Positions 12,997 to 33,274 of a stretch of DNA of 64,000 nt are shown here, piece after piece. The DNA comes from Candidatus Saccharimonadales bacterium. GTDB lineage: Bacteria; Patescibacteriota; Saccharimonadia; Saccharimonadales; JACDFO01. Every line of letters begins with the position of its first letter. Position 1 is the stretch's first letter. The translations under genes and the position numbers were made by a program. The stretch lies in contig JBBSLJ010000003.1 in NCBI GenBank assembly GCA_038255465.1, positions 285 to 64,284 on the forward strand, given 5' to 3'. The notes under the pieces were generated by a model. The model was given only the letters and a program-made list of their open reading frames with translations, was not told the origin of the DNA and did no database searches.

Positions 12997-13941
12997 ATGG
13001 CAACAACTAAGAAATCAACCAAAGCAAAGACCAAAACTACCAAAAAGCCAGCAGTTAAAGCGCGCACCACTGCTGTTAAAACCACTCGCGCTACCAAGAC
13101 TACTAAAGTAACAAAGCAGCCCGTCGTAAAAAAACCGGTTGTAAAAGCAGCAGCAGTTGTTAAAGCGAAAACAACTGAATTAACCGCTAATACATTACGC
13201 AAACTTAATTTTGTTAAGGCATTTGTCTTTGCTGCGCTTGCAGTACTGGCCGGTGTATTAATGAGCAGCGCCAGCTATCCGGTTAGCATTGGCTACCAGG
13301 CTAAAGATGCACTAGTTAGCCTTACGGCAGGCAAGACGGCTTTTGTGCATGGCAACCAAAACCTGTTTGATATCGAGGTTCGCTGGTTAGTTGTGACAAT
13401 TCTAGGTTTGGCAGCCGTGTTCTCATTGTTAATTGCAACTAGATTACGCGCTAAATACGAAGCGACACTTACGGATGGTGTTTCATCAATGCGTTGGATT
13501 GGCTGGGGCATTACTGCTGCGCTCATGGTAGAAACGGTGGCACTTTTGTCTGGTGTGAGCGATATCCTGACGCTCAAGCTTATCGCCGGTTTAATGCTCG
13601 TAACCTGTGCGCTGGCATGGGTTGCTGAGAAGCGCAACAAGCAGGCCGGGCGACCTGCCTGGAGCGAATTTGTAGTCAGCCTTTTCACCGGCTCACTGCC
13701 GTGGATGTTAATCGGTGGCTATGCTATTGCAACGTGGGTGTGGGGTTTGATCCGCTATCCTTGGTATGTTTACGCGCTTTACGCAGCATTGCTGGTCGGT
13801 TTCATTACACTTACCTTCACACAGTACAAGCGAATTAATGGCTGGAAGAATACGCTCATTGTTGAGCGAAACTATCTTCTGATCGGTCTTGTTACTAAAG
13901 TTGCGTTTGCTGTTATCCTCATCCTTGCATTTCAGAAATAA
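12997..13941 (+). CDS. heliorhodopsin-like 7TM membrane protein with Lys/Thr-rich N-terminal tail
   Basis: Seven predicted TM helices. Segments align to heliorhodopsin 48C12 as I recall it: RW at the TM3 start, AWVAEK vs GWLQEK, GSLPW vs GIVPW, and ERNYLLIGLVTKVAFAV vs ERAYIVLSLVAKSALAW, which includes the TM7 Lys (K301). See finding. Confidence 0.55.
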   Translation: MATTKKSTKAKTKTTKKPAVKARTTAVKTTRATKTTKVTKQPVVKKPVVKAAAVVKAKTTELTANTLRKLNFVKAFVFAALAVLAGVLMSSASYPVSIGYQAKDALVSLTAGKTAFVHGNQNLFDIEVRWLVVTILGLAAVFSLLIATRLRAKYEATLTDGVSSMRWIGWGITAALMVETVALLSGVSDILTLKLIAGLMLVTCALAWVAEKRNKQAGRPAWSEFVVSLFTGSLPWMLIGGYAIATWVWGLIRYPWYVYALYAALLVGFITLTFTQYKRINGWKNTLIVERNYLLIGLVTKVAFAVILILAFQK

Positions 13942-18565: not shown

Positions 18566-20032
18566 ATGTCAGAAGTTAGGCCCAGGTTTCTTTTAGATGA
18601 AGCCGGTGAACCCACAGATGGTGTTGGCGGTTTCGAAACTGAGTTTGGATTTCGGTGTGAGGTAAAAGGAAACCGAGCACTAAACACTAAAGCAACTCAA
18701 GACGTAGCATTCGAAGCCGGTGGGATGTATACCTGTGCTTATAAGGCCGACGGAGATCGGGAATATGTAGACGTGGGTCATCATCCGGAAATCTCGACAG
18801 CAGAAGATACGGATCCAGTAATTTCCGCACACCGTGTGATGCGCTCTTTTGTTAAAGCCCAACAAAAACATCAAATTAGTGCAGCGCAAGTTGGAAAATG
18901 TATGGTATCCAAGGGAAGTGAAGCCGCAATAAAAGTAAATCTTTTTGCGAATACCTGCGATCCGCACGGCAATACATGGGCAAGCCATAATAATGTTTTA
19001 GCGCCGCGAGGCCTGCCATTTGGCGACTACGTATACCCGCTGCTTATTCACAATGTCAGTCACATTGTCTGGTCAGGCGCGGGTCACGTACAACCAACAG
19101 AGGATGGCGGTTACCGCTATTGTTTAAGTGAACGAGCCGATCATTTTTGGGATACAGTAAGTCTTAATACGACTCAAAACAGACCGTTAGTTAATACAAG
19201 AGACGTGCCGTATGCTGACAAGCAACGCTTTCGTCGCATCCATGACATATCGGGTGACGCGGTGATGAGTCCATTCGTCTATGCGCTCAGAAGAGCGAGC
19301 GTCGCAATCATCTTGCGAGCATGCGGTTTAGGTGTAAAGTTCGATGACCTGATGCCAGAGAACCCAATTGCAGCTATCAGGACTATAAATCATGATCCTA
19401 CGCTGAAGGCAAAAGTAAGCTTGGCAGATGGTAGAAAAATGAGCGGATTAGACTTAGAACGATACGTTATGGAACGTTCGCTCGTGGCTACCAGAAGAGC
19501 TAAATGCTTAACAGCTCAAGATGAGTTATTTGGTAAAAAATGGGAAAAGCTGCTTGATGATCTTTCGCAAGACCCGGCGCTTTGCGAACGACGAGTTAAC
19601 TGGGTGGTTAAAGAGGAGTTAATTTTGCGTGAGCTGGAGGCTAAGTTTGCGCAAATAAACAGTCTTGGCAAAGATAGAGTGTCGGCCGGAGCTGTAGCAC
19701 TGCAAAAATCTATAGAATTTCATCGTTTGTCGCCGTATGAGGGCGCAGGCATGAAGTTGCTAAGAAGAGGTTTTTTTGAGGATTCCCCATCTGCCGACGT
19801 ATTAGAAAATGGCGTGCCATTACCGAATACCAGGGCCAAAGTCAGGGGTCAGGCAATTGGCCGCCTTATGACATTGAATCCGGAGGATGGTCGATACAAT
19901 CAGATCTTTTCGACCAGTTGGGACGTCCTTACACTACACTGGGTTACCAACGGCAGGACGATGATGAACGATCCGTTTAAAGCCGAAATGCCGGAATCCC
20001 TTGATCGACGCCTGCAACAACTCGGAGTCTAG
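18566..20032 (+). CDS. Pup-ligase/deamidase family protein (PafA/Dop homolog)
   Basis: GGFETEFG, EYVDVGHHPEISTAE, YCLSERADHFWDTVSLNTTQNRPLVNTRDVPYADKQRFRRIHDISGD, NPIAAIRTINHDPTLKAKVSLADGRKMSGLDL and TSWDVLTL align with mycobacterial PafA/Dop as I remember them. Confidence 0.8.
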   Translation: MSEVRPRFLLDEAGEPTDGVGGFETEFGFRCEVKGNRALNTKATQDVAFEAGGMYTCAYKADGDREYVDVGHHPEISTAEDTDPVISAHRVMRSFVKAQQKHQISAAQVGKCMVSKGSEAAIKVNLFANTCDPHGNTWASHNNVLAPRGLPFGDYVYPLLIHNVSHIVWSGAGHVQPTEDGGYRYCLSERADHFWDTVSLNTTQNRPLVNTRDVPYADKQRFRRIHDISGDAVMSPFVYALRRASVAIILRACGLGVKFDDLMPENPIAAIRTINHDPTLKAKVSLADGRKMSGLDLERYVMERSLVATRRAKCLTAQDELFGKKWEKLLDDLSQDPALCERRVNWVVKEELILRELEAKFAQINSLGKDRVSAGAVALQKSIEFHRLSPYEGAGMKLLRRGFFEDSPSADVLENGVPLPNTRAKVRGQAIGRLMTLNPEDGRYNQIFSTSWDVLTLHWVTNGRTMMNDPFKAEMPESLDRRLQQLGV

Positions 20033-29100: not shown

Positions 29101-30234
29101 ATGACAAAGTTCCAAACTATTAAACAAAAAATCCCAATCATGAAAACAAAAACCCAGCAGCTAGTCAAACTATTTTTTATACCCGTTATCGCAGTTACGC
29201 TGTCACTCGGTGGGCTTGTTGGTGCCGAGACTTTTCAATCGCAAATTAATAACCTTAATACGCAAAACAGTGGCTTGCAGGCTCAGCGCCAGGACTTGCT
29301 GCAAGAGGCCGAGAGCCTAGAAGCAGTAATTTCAAGTCTGGGATCTCAGATTGCAGAGTTGCAAAGCCAGATCAACAACAATCAGGCCAAAATGGTCGAC
29401 TTGAAGCGTCAAATAATAGAAGCAGAAGCCGAAATAGTTCGTCAACAAGAGCTGATGGGCGATAGCATTCGTGCGATGTATCTTGAAGGTGACATATCTA
29501 CCCTTGAAATATTGGCATCGAGCAAAGATCTCAGCGAATATTTAGACCGCGAACAGTATCGCAACGAAGTCCAGAATAAGGTAAAAACAACACTCGATAG
29601 AATACGTGAACTACGTGAGCAGCTTGAAGCTCAAAAATTGGAAATAGAAAAGATTTTAGCTGATCAACGGGCCATTCAGGTGCAACTTGATGTTCAGCGC
29701 GGCGAGCAGTCGCGGCTATTATCTCTAAATGAGGGCCAGCGTAGCAGCTTAAGTAGCCAGATAAAATCCAATACTGGCAAAATTGCCGACCTAAGGCGTC
29801 AGCAGGCAGCAGCTAACGCGCGACTTTTTGGCAGCCGGGGTACTATTAATGTGCCGGACACGACAGGCTATCCGTGGGCAAATGTGTCTTTTCCAAACAC
29901 CGTTTCTGATCCATGGGGGATGTACAAGCGCCAATGTGTCAGCTATACCGCTTGGAAGGTCTGGAAAAGCGGCCGACACATGCCGTTCTGGGGCGGCCGC
30001 GGCAACGCAAACCAGTGGGATGACAATGCCCGCGCTGCCGGTATACCCGTAGATGGCAGTCCTCGCGTCGGTGACATTGCAGTTAGCAATAGTGGCTACT
30101 ACGGCCACGTTATGTATGTTGAGGCCGTCTACGACGACGGAACAATCTATGTCAGTCAGTACAATGCCAACTGGGGCGGCACATACTCGGAAGCTCGAGT
30201 TAACATCGGCAGTTTAGTCTTCATACATTTTTAA
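29101..30234 (+). CDS. coiled-coil + CHAP domain peptidoglycan hydrolase (PcsB-like), paralog 1
   Basis: Signal/TM, then ~230 aa of heptad-rich Q/E/L coiled coil, then C-terminal CHAP (QCVSYTAWKV ... GHVMYVEAV). It lies directly downstream of ftsEX. Confidence 0.8.
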   Translation: MTKFQTIKQKIPIMKTKTQQLVKLFFIPVIAVTLSLGGLVGAETFQSQINNLNTQNSGLQAQRQDLLQEAESLEAVISSLGSQIAELQSQINNNQAKMVDLKRQIIEAEAEIVRQQELMGDSIRAMYLEGDISTLEILASSKDLSEYLDREQYRNEVQNKVKTTLDRIRELREQLEAQKLEIEKILADQRAIQVQLDVQRGEQSRLLSLNEGQRSSLSSQIKSNTGKIADLRRQQAAANARLFGSRGTINVPDTTGYPWANVSFPNTVSDPWGMYKRQCVSYTAWKVWKSGRHMPFWGGRGNANQWDDNARAAGIPVDGSPRVGDIAVSNSGYYGHVMYVEAVYDDGTIYVSQYNANWGGTYSEARVNIGSLVFIHF

Positions 30235-30237
30235 AAC

Positions 30238-30500
30238 CATTTCGGCGCTACTTCGTAGCTCTCCCGACCAACTTTTGACAGCAAAAGTTGGGCAAAACTG
30301 CTGGGCCACTTCAGCTCTTGATGACTTCGCTGTCAAAACTACAAGGCTCGGAGAACTCAGGCCTTGCTTTCATACTTGGGATAGCAAGGCCTTCAAACAA
30401 GCTCCTCGCAACTACTTGTAGTTATTGACACTCAGGCATCAGGAGCTTCCGCCATGCCCAGACACCAACCCCCATGGCCATTTGGCTAAAGACGAAATGT
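30238..30500 (+). repeat. left copy of a ~262-nt structured inverted-repeat element
   Basis: It is the reverse complement of 31345-31605, with two near-identical blocks (59/62 and 58/63 nt) and covarying hairpins between them. See finding. Confidence 0.85.
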
Positions 30501-30542
30501 ATTTATATTCGCAAAAGAACAGGGAGAGTATACTCTTTATAA

Positions 30543-30737
30543 ATGGGAGATATTGTAAACATGAAGCTGAATTCATCAGAACTAGTAATAAAATTGGCTG
30601 ACGCTGCGAGTCAAATTGTCAGTCGAGATGATACACAGTACTATGCACAAGAAACTGTCGAGGCGCATTTACGGAAGTCGCCTCGTACTAACACCTTAAA
30701 GTCGTCAATCGGAGACCTGGAAGAACTTTTAAAATGA
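30543..30737 (+). CDS. hypothetical small protein (64 aa; alternative start 30561)
   Basis: ORF with TATACT 8 nt upstream. Its stop overlaps the next gene's start (ATGA). No motif recognised. Confidence 0.4.
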   Translation: MGDIVNMKLNSSELVIKLADAASQIVSRDDTQYYAQETVEAHLRKSPRTNTLKSSIGDLEELLK

Positions 30738-31339
30738 GTGAGATTAAAGCCATTGGGTTTGATTGGGGCGGGGTGTTAAATGGCAGACCTGGGAAGTTTT
30801 TTGGTCAGAGTGTAGCTACACTGCTGGGCATTTCTTATCAACAATATCTAGATGCTTATTTTAAGCATAACAAAAAGGTCAACCGAGGCGAAGTGACATG
30901 GGAAGAGCTGTGGACGCTTGTGCTGACAGATTTGGGTAAGCGAGATAAAGTGCATGCAATCATGAAGTTGAGTCAGGAAGCAAACGCTGAAAGGCTGAAC
31001 CAAGATGTTTTGGATTTGGCAGACAAACTTCGTGCCCTGGGATATAAAATAGGCTTATTGAGCAATAACACCCACGAAAAAGCTGCCAGTATGAGACAGA
31101 CTGGCCTAGATAAACACTTTGACGTCTTTCATATTTCTGCAGAAACGGGCTTGGTAAAACCTGAACCACATGCCTTTACTCACTTCTCAGAGGAGCTGGG
31201 CGTTAAGCCAAGCGAGTTAGTGTTTATAGATGATTCCGAAAAAAGCCTAAGCACCGCCACAGAAGTTGGGTTTACGTCAATACTATTCGATACCTATGAA
31301 GAACTAATCCAAGACCTAACGAATTTAAAAATAATTTAA
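30734..31339 (+). CDS. HAD superfamily hydrolase (subfamily IA-like phosphatase)
   Basis: Motif I FDWGGVL, motif II LLSNN and motif IV FIDDSEK. Confidence 0.75.
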   Translation: MSEIKAIGFDWGGVLNGRPGKFFGQSVATLLGISYQQYLDAYFKHNKKVNRGEVTWEELWTLVLTDLGKRDKVHAIMKLSQEANAERLNQDVLDLADKLRALGYKIGLLSNNTHEKAASMRQTGLDKHFDVFHISAETGLVKPEPHAFTHFSEELGVKPSELVFIDDSEKSLSTATEVGFTSILFDTYEELIQDLTNLKII

Positions 31340-31344
31340 TTAAC

Positions 31345-31605
31345 ACATTTTGTCTTTAGCGAAATGGCCGTGGGGGTTGGGGTCTGGGCATGGCGAAAGC
31401 TCCTGATACGTGAATGGCAAAGCCACAATAGACAGCGAAAGATTATTTGAAGCCCGCCATCCCAAGTAACAGGGCGGGCTGAGTTCCTTGAGCGTTGTGG
31501 CGCTTGACAATGAACGTCTCAAGAGCTGGAGTGGCCCAGCAGTTTTGTCCAACTTTTGCTGTCAAAAGGTGGTCGGGAGAGGTCGCCGTGGCGACCGTCG
31601 AAATG
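31345..31605 (-). repeat. right copy (inverted) of the ~262-nt structured element
   Basis: See 30238-30500. It sits between the HAD gene stop and the promoter of the second PcsB-like gene. Confidence 0.85.
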
Positions 31606-31633
31606 ATTTAGTTCTTGAGATTCAACAGGGGGG

Positions 31634-31662
31634 TTGAAAATGGTTGTGGTTTTTGATATAAT
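31634..31662 (+). promoter_or_regulatory. sigma70-type promoter of PcsB-like paralog 2
   Basis: TTGAAA (31634-31639), a 17-nt spacer, then TATAAT (31657-31662). It lies 27 nt upstream of the ATG at 31689. Confidence 0.6.
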
Positions 31663-31688: not shown

Positions 31689-32873
31689 ATGACAAACAAA
31701 AAGCAAAAAATATTACCTAAACCTATACATGGCCTACTGCTACTCATTTTAGTAGCAGGTTTTGTCGTTTCGCCTCTGTCAAAAACCGTTAGGGCAGACC
31801 GTTTTAGCGACCAAATCAATGAGCTTAAAAACCAAAATACTCAAAATGAACAATCCGTTAAGGCTCTCCAGGTTGAAGCCGGCAATATTGCCGAAGTAAT
31901 TGCGGGATTACAAACTCAAATAAATGGCCTCCAGGATCAGATAAATGCCAACCAAGCCAAGTCAGACGAACTGGCCCGCCAAATTACTGAAGCTGAAATT
32001 GAACTGGACAAGCAGAAGAACCTGATGGGCCAGAATATTCGGGCTATGTATTTAGAGGGTGATATTACTACGCTTGAAATGCTGGCTTCTAGCAAAGATC
32101 TTAGTGAATTTATCGACAGGCAACAGTACCGCGATGCGGTAAAGGACAAAATTAAGTCCACGCTAGACCGTATTAGCATCTTAAAAGCTCAGCTGAATAC
32201 CGCTAAAGAAGAGACTGAACGTCTGATTCAAGAAGATAATGTCCTAAAAGCCCAGGCAGACGCGAATAAGGCTGAACAGAGGCGACTTCTAGGGTTTAAC
32301 CAAGCCCAACAGAGCGAGTACAACAAACAGATTAAGGAAAACAAGGCGCAGATTACTGAACTGAAGCGCCAACAGGTACTTGAAAACATCCGTCTTTTTG
32401 GTGCGGGTGGGGCTCCCGGCATTCCTGGCGGTGGCGGCTATCCGTGGGGTAACGCCTATTGTGTCCATACCAATAAGGTTAGTGGCCCTTGTGATAACTA
32501 CGACTGGTACTTCAGGGGCGGTCCATGGGACGTTTGGGGTTACGGCTACCGCAACTGCACGTCATGGGTGGCATATAAATTGGCTGCCGATGGCAAAACC
32601 GGTTTTAGCTACCTTGGAAATGCAGCAGACTGGCCAAGCGCAGCTGCGGCCCGTGGCTATAAAGTTAGTTATGGAAGCGGTGCACGGGTTGGTGACGCGG
32701 CGGTTAACCCGAATGGTTACTATGGCCATGTAATGTACGTCGAGGCAGTATTTGACGATGGCCGAGTGGTCGTAAGCGACTATAACCGACTTGGAGACGG
32801 CTTGTATCGTGGGCCTGAGGGAAATAGTGCAGGGGTAATTAATCAAAGCGGTTTGGTGTTTATAAGCTTCTAA
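31689..32873 (+). CDS. coiled-coil + CHAP domain peptidoglycan hydrolase (PcsB-like), paralog 2
   Basis: Same architecture as 29101-30234. They share IRAMYLEGDI(S/T)TLE(I/M)LASSKDLSE and GYYGHVMYVEAV. The CHAP Cys context is NCTSWVAYKL. Confidence 0.8.
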   Translation: MTNKKQKILPKPIHGLLLLILVAGFVVSPLSKTVRADRFSDQINELKNQNTQNEQSVKALQVEAGNIAEVIAGLQTQINGLQDQINANQAKSDELARQITEAEIELDKQKNLMGQNIRAMYLEGDITTLEMLASSKDLSEFIDRQQYRDAVKDKIKSTLDRISILKAQLNTAKEETERLIQEDNVLKAQADANKAEQRRLLGFNQAQQSEYNKQIKENKAQITELKRQQVLENIRLFGAGGAPGIPGGGGYPWGNAYCVHTNKVSGPCDNYDWYFRGGPWDVWGYGYRNCTSWVAYKLAADGKTGFSYLGNAADWPSAAAARGYKVSYGSGARVGDAAVNPNGYYGHVMYVEAVFDDGRVVVSDYNRLGDGLYRGPEGNSAGVINQSGLVFISF

Positions 32874-32896: not shown

Positions 32897-33274
32897 ATGC
32901 AGCAAAGTAAACAAAAAGCCACAGTTTGGGTCATTATAGCTTTTGTGAGTGGTTACTTATGGGTTATGGCGCTTGGAAATAGTATATTTCCACCGATAGA
33001 TGTTACTCCCCCAGCACATTCACAAAGAATAGTTAATGGTCAAATCATAAACTATGACAAAAACGGACGCTCTATTAAGCCTGCATATCAAAGTAATCCG
33101 ATAAACATGCTAGTTAGGATATTCGCGGGCTTACTATTTATTGTTGCGTATTGGCAGATACTCGGCTTAGTAATTCCAATGCCAGGGGTACGGTTGATTG
33201 TTTTCCTGGTTAGTATTCCAATCGGATATATGGTCTTTGTTGCGATGGCTTTCGCAACTATTTTCGGCAATTAG
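32897..33274 (+). CDS. hypothetical small membrane protein (3 TM)
   Basis: Hydrophobic helices, a TACTAT box 7 nt upstream of the ATG, and a strong terminator downstream. Confidence 0.5.
   Translation: MQQSKQKATVWVIIAFVSGYLWVMALGNSIFPPIDVTPPAHSQRIVNGQIINYDKNGRSIKPAYQSNPINMLVRIFAGLLFIVAYWQILGLVIPMPGVRLIVFLVSIPIGYMVFVAMAFATIFGN

Follow-up and report, generated by a model that had tools for sequence, protein, structure and literature searches.

Inverted, structured repeats around a two-gene cassette in a Candidatus Saccharimonadales bacterium: probable arms of a dispersed, pseudoknotted repeat family

Introduction

The genomes of Saccharibacteria and other Patescibacteria are very small and densely packed. 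In a stretch of 64,000 nucleotides from a Candidatus Saccharimonadales bacterium (GenBank assembly GCA_038255465.1, contig JBBSLJ010000003.1, positions 285 to 64,284 of the forward strand; the whole stretch is called the window below), two genes for PcsB-like proteins, pcsB1 and pcsB2, enclose two inverted copies of a non-coding element of about 270 nt, the left arm L and the right arm R. Between the arms lies a cassette of two small genes, orf64 and a gene for a HAD-family hydrolase. This arrangement raises the question of what the arms are, and how they relate to the genes that they bracket. In the literature, we found neither an element of this sort described for Saccharibacteria or Patescibacteria nor an account of families of non-coding RNA or of interspersed repeats in these bacteria. 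Our analysis suggests that L and R are probably the two arms of a doublet that belongs to a Saccharimonadia-specific family of structured interspersed repeats, and that this family shows low-copy, non-autonomous mobile or duplicative behaviour.

Results

The starting point was a first-pass annotation that had described two diverged inverted copies with two conserved blocks and a poorer middle, several hairpins (H1, H4 and a 10-bp hairpin, here called H2), and a HAD gene with a small open reading frame (ORF) between pcsB-like flanks. All of this holds, with slightly wider bounds for the arms (L 30236-30506 on the + strand, R 31339-31610 on the - strand). With L as the blastn query against the window, R was recovered over 251 nt (81% identity, E 9e-56), and a repeat search returned two inverted block pairs, one at the 5' ends of the arms (30259-30336 and 31504-31581; 78 nt, 88%) and one at the 3' ends (30425-30506 and 31339-31420; 82 nt, 87%). 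The MAFFT alignment of L and R has the same two conserved blocks and a less conserved middle; the hairpins agree between sequence, alignment and folding, and the gene context agrees with Pfam. L and R are each other's nearest relatives (76-81% identity), and neither blastn nor nhmmer found a third copy in the window. The 3' tail of R overlaps the stop codon of the HAD gene, and its 5' end lies towards the pcsB2 promoter. In two short-read assemblies, of this and of a related organism, contigs end within the right arm (L001, 4256-4497; L036, 4360-4567).

The two arms are members of a larger family. A homolog search in relatives, which the first-pass annotation had proposed, yielded about 28 members, fragments included, in 10 Saccharimonadia assemblies; the DNA available around each copy was 2-13 kb. 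How many copies there are, how solos relate to doublets and how far the family extends taxonomically are thus given as minimum estimates. A pattern made from the blocks common to three diverged copies was scanned against species-representative genomes, a kind of scan that detects only the best-conserved members, and gave 13 loci. Eleven of these were confirmed by nhmmer: they lie in four metagenome-assembled genomes of Saccharibacteria or other Patescibacteria, one of them with at least five copies, and in one contig labelled Limnocylindrales. A metagenome scan contributed one additional locus. Further copies came from a second profile, made for a variant (type 2) that has the 5' and 3' modules of type 1 together with a different, distantly similar central domain. 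Across the family the arms measure about 250-270 nt. Copies cluster by genome, their nearest matches being copies of the same genome, and since the same H1-H2 module recurs within a genome in copies of either type, the comparison points to recombination among copies. The copy on the Limnocylindrales contig (L025, DATLEQ010000074.1), a typical one directly after topA, is 74-78% identical to copies of the Patescibacteria genome JAZKJC01 (77% to L024, 69-78% to the two copies of L030), and this contig is probably misbinned.

The earlier statement that the element matches no known RNA family was borne out for both copies and their homologs: Rfam 15 gave no hits at the gathering threshold in the window or in 14 loci with about 26 copies, and relaxing the E value to 10 brought up nothing but noise (mir-3119, snoRNAs). 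Phage and plasmid collections gave no blastn match; among viral contigs there were two chance pattern hits that nhmmer did not confirm, and the family pattern gave none. Several other identities were considered and rejected. No tRNA or tmRNA is present in the window. A protein-coding element is at odds with the lack of a reading frame conserved across copies; one open frame of 85 aa found a single hit among 5.8 billion proteins. A hammerhead core was suggested by an antisense CUGAUGA, which by eye is not conserved and has no Rfam hit.

When folded singly, the copies have a common architecture: the hairpins H1 and H2, a closing helix (P3), a long rod with the variable hairpin H4 at its tip, and finally a hairpin at the 3' side (for the positions in L, see Table 1). 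H2 comprises 10-13 bp over the family, and its stem sequence varies yet is always paired. The closing helix is GACAGGC/GCCUG in most copies, and the rod has conserved internal loops (CAGCUCUU, GUCAA, GAACUC, CUCGC and AUCAGGAGCUU). H4, found at the stated 30360-30391 in L, presents a conserved TACTTGGGAT loop, with the flanks GAACTCAG and TTCAAA. The 3' hairpin, weak in L, is stronger elsewhere in the family, where it lies 10-18 nt beyond P3; about 18 of the 25 copies have such a hairpin. A 7-bp end helix of L (CAUUUCG/CGAAAUG) is imperfect in R and missing from other copies. The predicted fold of L reaches -102.6 kcal/mol (z = -7.3 against shuffles), that of R is weaker (z = -2.3); read in its own sense, R forms 30 Watson-Crick, 4 G-U and 1 A-C pair at the 41 consensus pairs. 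Most type 1 and type 2 copies also carry a conserved palindromic CCAUGG 10-15 nt past the closing helix, immediately ahead of the 3' hairpin (L 30471-30476; CCACGG in R), a self-complementarity that could permit dimerisation.

The first-pass annotation had proposed selection on structure from the comparison of L and R. This selection is real, and it is far stronger than two copies could reveal. An RNAalifold consensus of 15 type-1 copies has 41 pairs. Compensatory double changes occur at 22 of these, and in H4 at six of the seven pairs. The proportion of paired cells is 92.2% as compared to 83.0% after shuffling, and the alignment reaches a covariation score of 0.322, whereas shuffled alignments give 0.155 and slid registers 0.07-0.10. 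In all five measures, none of 500 shuffles came out as high. Type 2 (7 sequences) gives 40 pairs, of which 13 are compensatory. Moreover, the H2 loop and a segment beyond an A-rich linker covary across 24 copies and form a pseudoknot: the mean pairing run is 4.25 for matched partners versus 3.06 when loop and segment are taken from different copies (0 of 5000 permutations), and the pairs change in step from GUCGGC/GCCGAC to GUCGCC/GGCGAC, UGGGC/GCCCA and GUCGA/UCGAC, with CAGC/GCUG in both L and R. G-U or U-G cells outnumber A-C or C-A cells by 51 to 15, one invariant U-G pair accounting for 15 of the 51, and the bias holds in right arms too. Because of this excess, the fold is to be assigned to a single strand, the + strand for L and the - strand for R. 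The G-U bias and the presence of sense copies inside transcription units, as at lpg/xseA, favour an action as RNA; folded single-stranded DNA is a possible carrier as well, since right arms lack a visible promoter.

The copies are predominantly arranged in pairs. All nine doublets converge, with the 3' ends of the arms facing each other, an outcome with a chance probability of about 4e-6 under equal odds for each of the four relative orientations; seven of them contain cargo, and about eight copies are solos. A probable tenth doublet (L036) was detected by neither profile. The central domain is not the same in both arms of five doublets (L019 A/B, L027, L028, L032 and L035). The cargo proteins are mutually unrelated and none is transposase-like; the idea that the cargo might be a hidden transposase was therefore discarded, those proteins with a Pfam match being ordinary enzymes. 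In the empty doublets (L019 6440-6500, L036 4330-4370), the 3' tails of the arms join at an AT-rich quasi-palindrome (GTATTAATTAAAT / CTAAATGCTTTAG), and the corresponding 3' tail of R in the window (31330-31350) contains the stop codon of the HAD gene. This tail junction may be the point of cargo entry.

Occupancy differs between relatives at one and the same junction. The pcsB1/pcsB2 spacer alone occurs in forms that range from element-free to the complete arrangement of the window (Table 1). In L019 (GCA_038330375.1), a copy at the position of L is directly followed by a diverged inverted copy, without any cassette, and a second pair lies between ctpA and pyrG, a junction that is empty in the window. 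Between lpg (LPG_synthase_TM) and xseA, the window has a clean empty site with stop and start codons 2 nt apart (40359/40362); here, L033 has a solo copy that starts 1 nt past the stop codon, and in L035 an element follows lpg. Judged from this patchiness at orthologous junctions and from the clustering by genome, the family behaves like a dispersed repeat. The element-free pcsB1-pcsB2 spacers (L013 7138-7285, L020 7138-7343, L037 6138-6330) contain two to three hairpins and a conserved GGCTnCTCTCCTCC. Since GGCTnCTCTCCTCC in L013 and L020 is a second occurrence of the first hairpin's 3' strand, an attenuator-like alternative pairing is possible in these two spacers.

In the window, the order of the genes as assigned by Pfam is prfB, ftsE, ftsX, pcsB1, L, orf64, HAD, R, pcsB2, orf125, ctpA and pyrG. 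In ten other loci (L013-L018, L020, L021, L037 and L038), whose PcsB1 is 71-78% identical to that of the window, pcsB1 and pcsB2 are adjacent with a spacer of 94-350 bp and no HAD gene. HAD homologs of 65-74% identity occur in other Saccharimonadia in unrelated neighbourhoods, with no element nearby. Given these two observations, the orf64-HAD cassette is an insertion particular to the lineage of the window, and the synteny comparison agrees with the earlier proposal that it was inserted between the paralogs. The same homologs rule out the HAD gene as a marker of the element. A foreign composition of the cargo was considered too, and the GC content (0.41-0.42 as compared to 0.455 for the window) is only a weak signal. 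For orf64, an alternative start at 30561 is preceded by a GGGAGA Shine-Dalgarno sequence. Between pcsB2 and ctpA, orf125 (32897-33274) has no Pfam match, a GC content of 0.39 and no flanking arms; its place is taken by just 65-150 bp of spacer in L013, L019, L020, L021 and L038. It is a second small lineage-specific gene. Elsewhere, the window encodes a heliorhodopsin (12997-13941) and a Pup-ligase-like protein (18566-20032). Although the genome is otherwise rich in housekeeping genes, none of the 64 kb of the window matches a tRNA, a tmRNA or an Rfam family at the gathering threshold.

Table 1. Features of the window around the two arms, the nine doublets, and the forms of the pcsB1/pcsB2 spacer
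Feature	Position or locus	Strand	Basis or remark
pcsB1 (coiled-coil + CHAP), left flank	29101..30234	+	Pfam
Left arm L, type 1	30236..30506	+	Begins 2 nt past pcsB1 stop; family profile E 5.9e-50
H1 hairpin of L, GCTAC-ttc-GTAGC	30247..30259	+	Sequence, alignment, folding
H2 hairpin of L, perfect 10 bp	30268..30291	+	R counterpart 31549-31572
Pseudoknot of L	30279..30303	+	H2 loop CAGC (30279-30282) with GCUG (30300-30303) past A-rich linker
Closing helix P3 and central rod	30299..30464	+	RNAalifold, pair counts, minimum free energy fold
H4, apical rod hairpin	30359..30392	+	R: 31451-31480; stem swapped by compensatory pairs
Weak 3' hairpin of L, UGGCC-AUUU-GGCUA	30475..30488	+	Folding
Weak promoter-like site TTGGCT-16-TATATT	30482..30509	+	L inner end, before cargo; consensus scan only, 9/12 matches
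orf64, first cargo gene	30543..30737	+	Without Pfam match; stop overlaps HAD start
HAD-family hydrolase, second cargo gene	30734..31339	+	Pfam PF00702/PF13419
Right arm R, inverted type 1	31339..31610	-	Family profile E 8.3e-49
H1 hairpin of R, GGTCGCC-ac-GGCGACC	31581-31596	-	Stem sequence differs from L
pcsB2 promoter TTGAAA-17-TATAAT	31634-31662	+	Consensus scan; conserved among relatives
pcsB2 (coiled-coil + CHAP), right flank	31689..32873	+	Pfam
Doublet L/R	Window		Between arms: orf64 + HAD
Doublet	L030		Between arms: 198-aa ORF
Doublet	L027		Between arms: 254-aa ORF
Doublet	L028		Between arms: 297-aa ORF
Doublet	L032		Between arms: 183-aa ORF
Doublet	L026		Between arms: 179-aa AAA_18 kinase-like ORF
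Doublet	L035		Between arms: 241-aa membrane protein; left arm cut by contig end
Doublet A/B	L019		Between arms: nothing
Doublet C/D	L019		Between arms: nothing; right arm truncated
pcsB1/pcsB2 spacer, no element	L013, L020, L037, L038
pcsB1/pcsB2 spacer, type 2 alone	L021
pcsB1/pcsB2 spacer, type 1 + inverted type 2	L019
pcsB1/pcsB2 spacer, type 1 + probable inverted arm	L036		By eye only, no profile match; contig ends in arm
pcsB1/pcsB2 spacer, type 1 + cargo + inverted type 1	Window

Discussion

Membership in a structured interspersed repeat family is the reading that we hold to be the best description of L and R. Each arm folds alone as a single strand, the + strand for L and the - strand for R. 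The family is gained and lost at orthologous junctions and diversifies within genomes, with the arms mostly standing in converging pairs that are empty or close around one small accessory gene; the doublet of the window encloses orf64 and the HAD gene between pcsB1 and pcsB2, neighbours in the relatives. We infer that, much as with REPINs, it is the doublet that propagates or holds cargo, and that the fold is recognised by a trans-acting factor whose gene lies elsewhere.

Several results weigh against a mobile or duplicative family of this kind. The earlier statement that transposase, integrase and target-site duplication are missing agrees with the window Pfam assignments and with the junction comparison: in the window, the ORFs with 150 aa or more that have a Pfam match (about a dozen of this size have none) include no transposase, integrase, reverse transcriptase, Y1/HUH protein or TnpB, and no transposase or other mobility gene lies between any pair of arms. 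No target-site duplication was seen when filled and empty lpg/xseA and pcsB1/pcsB2 junctions were compared, with boundaries known to a few bases, and single elements have no conserved terminal inverted repeat. There is no sign of a recent burst, since copies of the same genome are just 60-86% identical. Finally, no sigma-70-like promoter was found upstream of the arms, including right arms without a co-oriented upstream gene, which leaves the transcription of such right arms unexplained, and a hairpin with a U-run (5 or more T among the 9 nt of the tail) ends only 6 of 25 copies, neither L nor R among them. A gene for a Y1_Tnp protein (IS200/RAYT-like) was noted in another Saccharibacteria genome (L011, GCA_034521515.1, 3032-3643) between ruvA and ruvC; there is no element within 6 kb of it.

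The first-pass annotation had also held that the element does not fit a repeat of the type of a MITE (miniature inverted-repeat transposable element). In this form, the judgement is not supported: the view that covarying stems exclude a mobile repeat was too strong because bcr1 (PMC3184786) and REPINs (PMC3116915) keep their stems by compensatory changes as well, and our family is patchy and clustered by genome. It resembles a MITE or interspersed repeat in its multiple non-coding copies and in an occupancy that varies between relatives, but differs in that neither conserved terminal inverted repeats nor a target-site duplication was seen. The closest known kind is the structured interspersed repeat, like bcr1 or the REPINs. 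In the Bacillus cereus group, bcr1 is a non-autonomous, transcribed repeat of about 155 bp that occurs in many copies with 5-bp direct repeats and has an RNA fold kept by compensatory changes; bcr5 (310 bp) is found on either side of a gene cluster (PMC3184786). Our element shares with the bcr repeats the intergenic location, the lack of an ORF, the variable occupancy, the compensatory changes and the multi-hairpin fold of a single strand; unlike bcr1, it has about 250-270 nt, a covarying pseudoknot, interchangeable central domains and no target duplication, it is low-copy in the DNA examined, and its sequence is unrelated. REPINs are inverted REP doublets that are moved by RAYT transposases; they, too, show compensatory changes, their singlets look like remnants, and folding has been proposed to take place in single-stranded DNA or in mRNA (PMC3116915). 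The predominance of the inverted doublet and the compensatory changes are common to both. However, in REPINs the hairpin forms between arms with REPs of about 25-35 nt, whereas our arms of 250-270 nt fold alone; moreover, heterotypic arms cannot pair lengthwise, a gene may sit between them, and no Y1 transposase was found in the window. The size of the arms, the covarying pseudoknot, the interchangeable central domains, the lack of a visible target duplication and the single genes between the arms set the family apart from both of these known structured repeats.

Among the rival explanations, the one that survives best is that the elements are fixed RNA modules of the host, acting in cis as 3' untranslated or intercistronic RNA that is co-transcribed with the upstream gene and stabilises, processes or insulates transcripts; the doublets would then reflect selection to insulate acquired genes on both sides. 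Elements beside a co-oriented upstream gene are indeed in sense orientation, 1-25 nt past the stop codon (for example pcsB1, ctpA, parB, topA, rnc and lpg), although this close spacing may reflect just the compactness of the genomes. The strand-biased G-U pairs and the pseudoknot suit an RNA, as does the 3' hairpin of about 18 of 25 copies, but a canonical terminator tail is limited to 6 of 25, and right arms have neither a co-oriented upstream gene nor a promoter-like site. Moreover, relatives manage without the element at the same junctions, and the copies cluster by genome. All in all, we regard host modules as unlikely, while taking them more seriously than the remaining rivals. More specific functions of this type were rejected: only the six copies with a hairpin and U-run qualify as canonical intrinsic terminators; the genes downstream are unrelated or convergent, which does not suit a riboswitch or leader; and an OMEGA guide RNA is contradicted by the lack of a match to the HEARO or IS605-orfB models. 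The OMEGA RNAs (HEARO/IscB omega RNA, IS605-orfB) are similar in that they are multi-copy, pseudoknotted RNAs of 200-300 nt that spread with mobile DNA; they differ by their Rfam match, by the IscB or TnpB that is missing in our window and between the arms, and by a guide-like variable end.

The first-pass annotation had also suggested that L in a read-through RNA of the + strand pairs with the antisense of R to give a stalk, which RNase III would cut, thus looping out or processing the cassette mRNA. Thermodynamically, this part stands for L and R: the duplex is predicted at -360 kcal/mol, the two arms folded locally at -201.5 kcal/mol; when 30236-31610 is folded to its minimum energy, 218 pairs form between the arms, and L has no strong terminator. 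As a general function of the family, by contrast, the stalk fails. Solo copies are common, and in five doublets a long stalk is impossible because the arms differ in their central domains and H2 stems; for these reasons, selection on the family does not act on the stalk. In addition, the G-U pairs that right arms form in their own sense would become A-C mismatches in the antisense RNA, and co-transcriptional folding favours the local fold of L. This explanation is therefore improbable.

We give equally little credence to the idea that we are dealing with a transposon that carries passenger genes and has the arms as its ordinary, double-stranded terminal inverted repeats, i. e. a mobile insertion cassette whose transposase is encoded elsewhere and binds the arms, with a structure that is incidental or results from quasi-palindrome correction. 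Inverted, outward-facing arms around unrelated cargo and the patchy occupancy would be expected of such a transposon. But five independent helices and a pseudoknot covary, and there is a strand-specific G-U bias; a double-stranded site needs neither. Besides, there is no target duplication, and paired arms often differ in type. A chance event or a recent local inverted duplication without wider meaning, for which only the mutual closeness of L and R speaks, is refuted by the family, as homologs with the same fold exist in nine other assemblies, the blastn E value is 1e-55, and a related copy is already present in the orthologous spacer of L019 and L036.

If the structured repeat family is taken one step further, it is tempting to consider the pseudoknotted arms, as RNA or as folded single-stranded DNA, as the recognition modules of a cassette-shuttling system in Saccharibacteria, in which a converging doublet would dock, capture, hold and exchange single accessory genes via a trans-acting enzyme encoded elsewhere. 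We put this forward as a tentative idea with a rather low probability. The logic would be that of integrons or REPINs, applied to a far larger structured site in ultra-small genomes. Integron attC sites are 57-141 bp long and form direct repeats in arrays next to the integrase gene and attI. As with integron cassettes, the genes involved are single, mostly unrelated accessory genes, and the sites keep structure over sequence and act on one strand; unlike attC arrays, the arms are inverted and dispersed, and according to Pfam no integrase is encoded in the window.

For the study of these bacteria, the family has practical consequences. It accounts for intergenic DNA that has so far been unannotated, its conserved blocks provide a sequence handle for a census, and the inverted repeat breaks short-read assemblies, as seen for L001 and L036. 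Most importantly, a pseudoknotted element of about 250 nt that is present in several copies per genome and repeatedly brackets single accessory genes represents either an unrecognised class of RNA or a new vehicle of gene gain in these epibionts.

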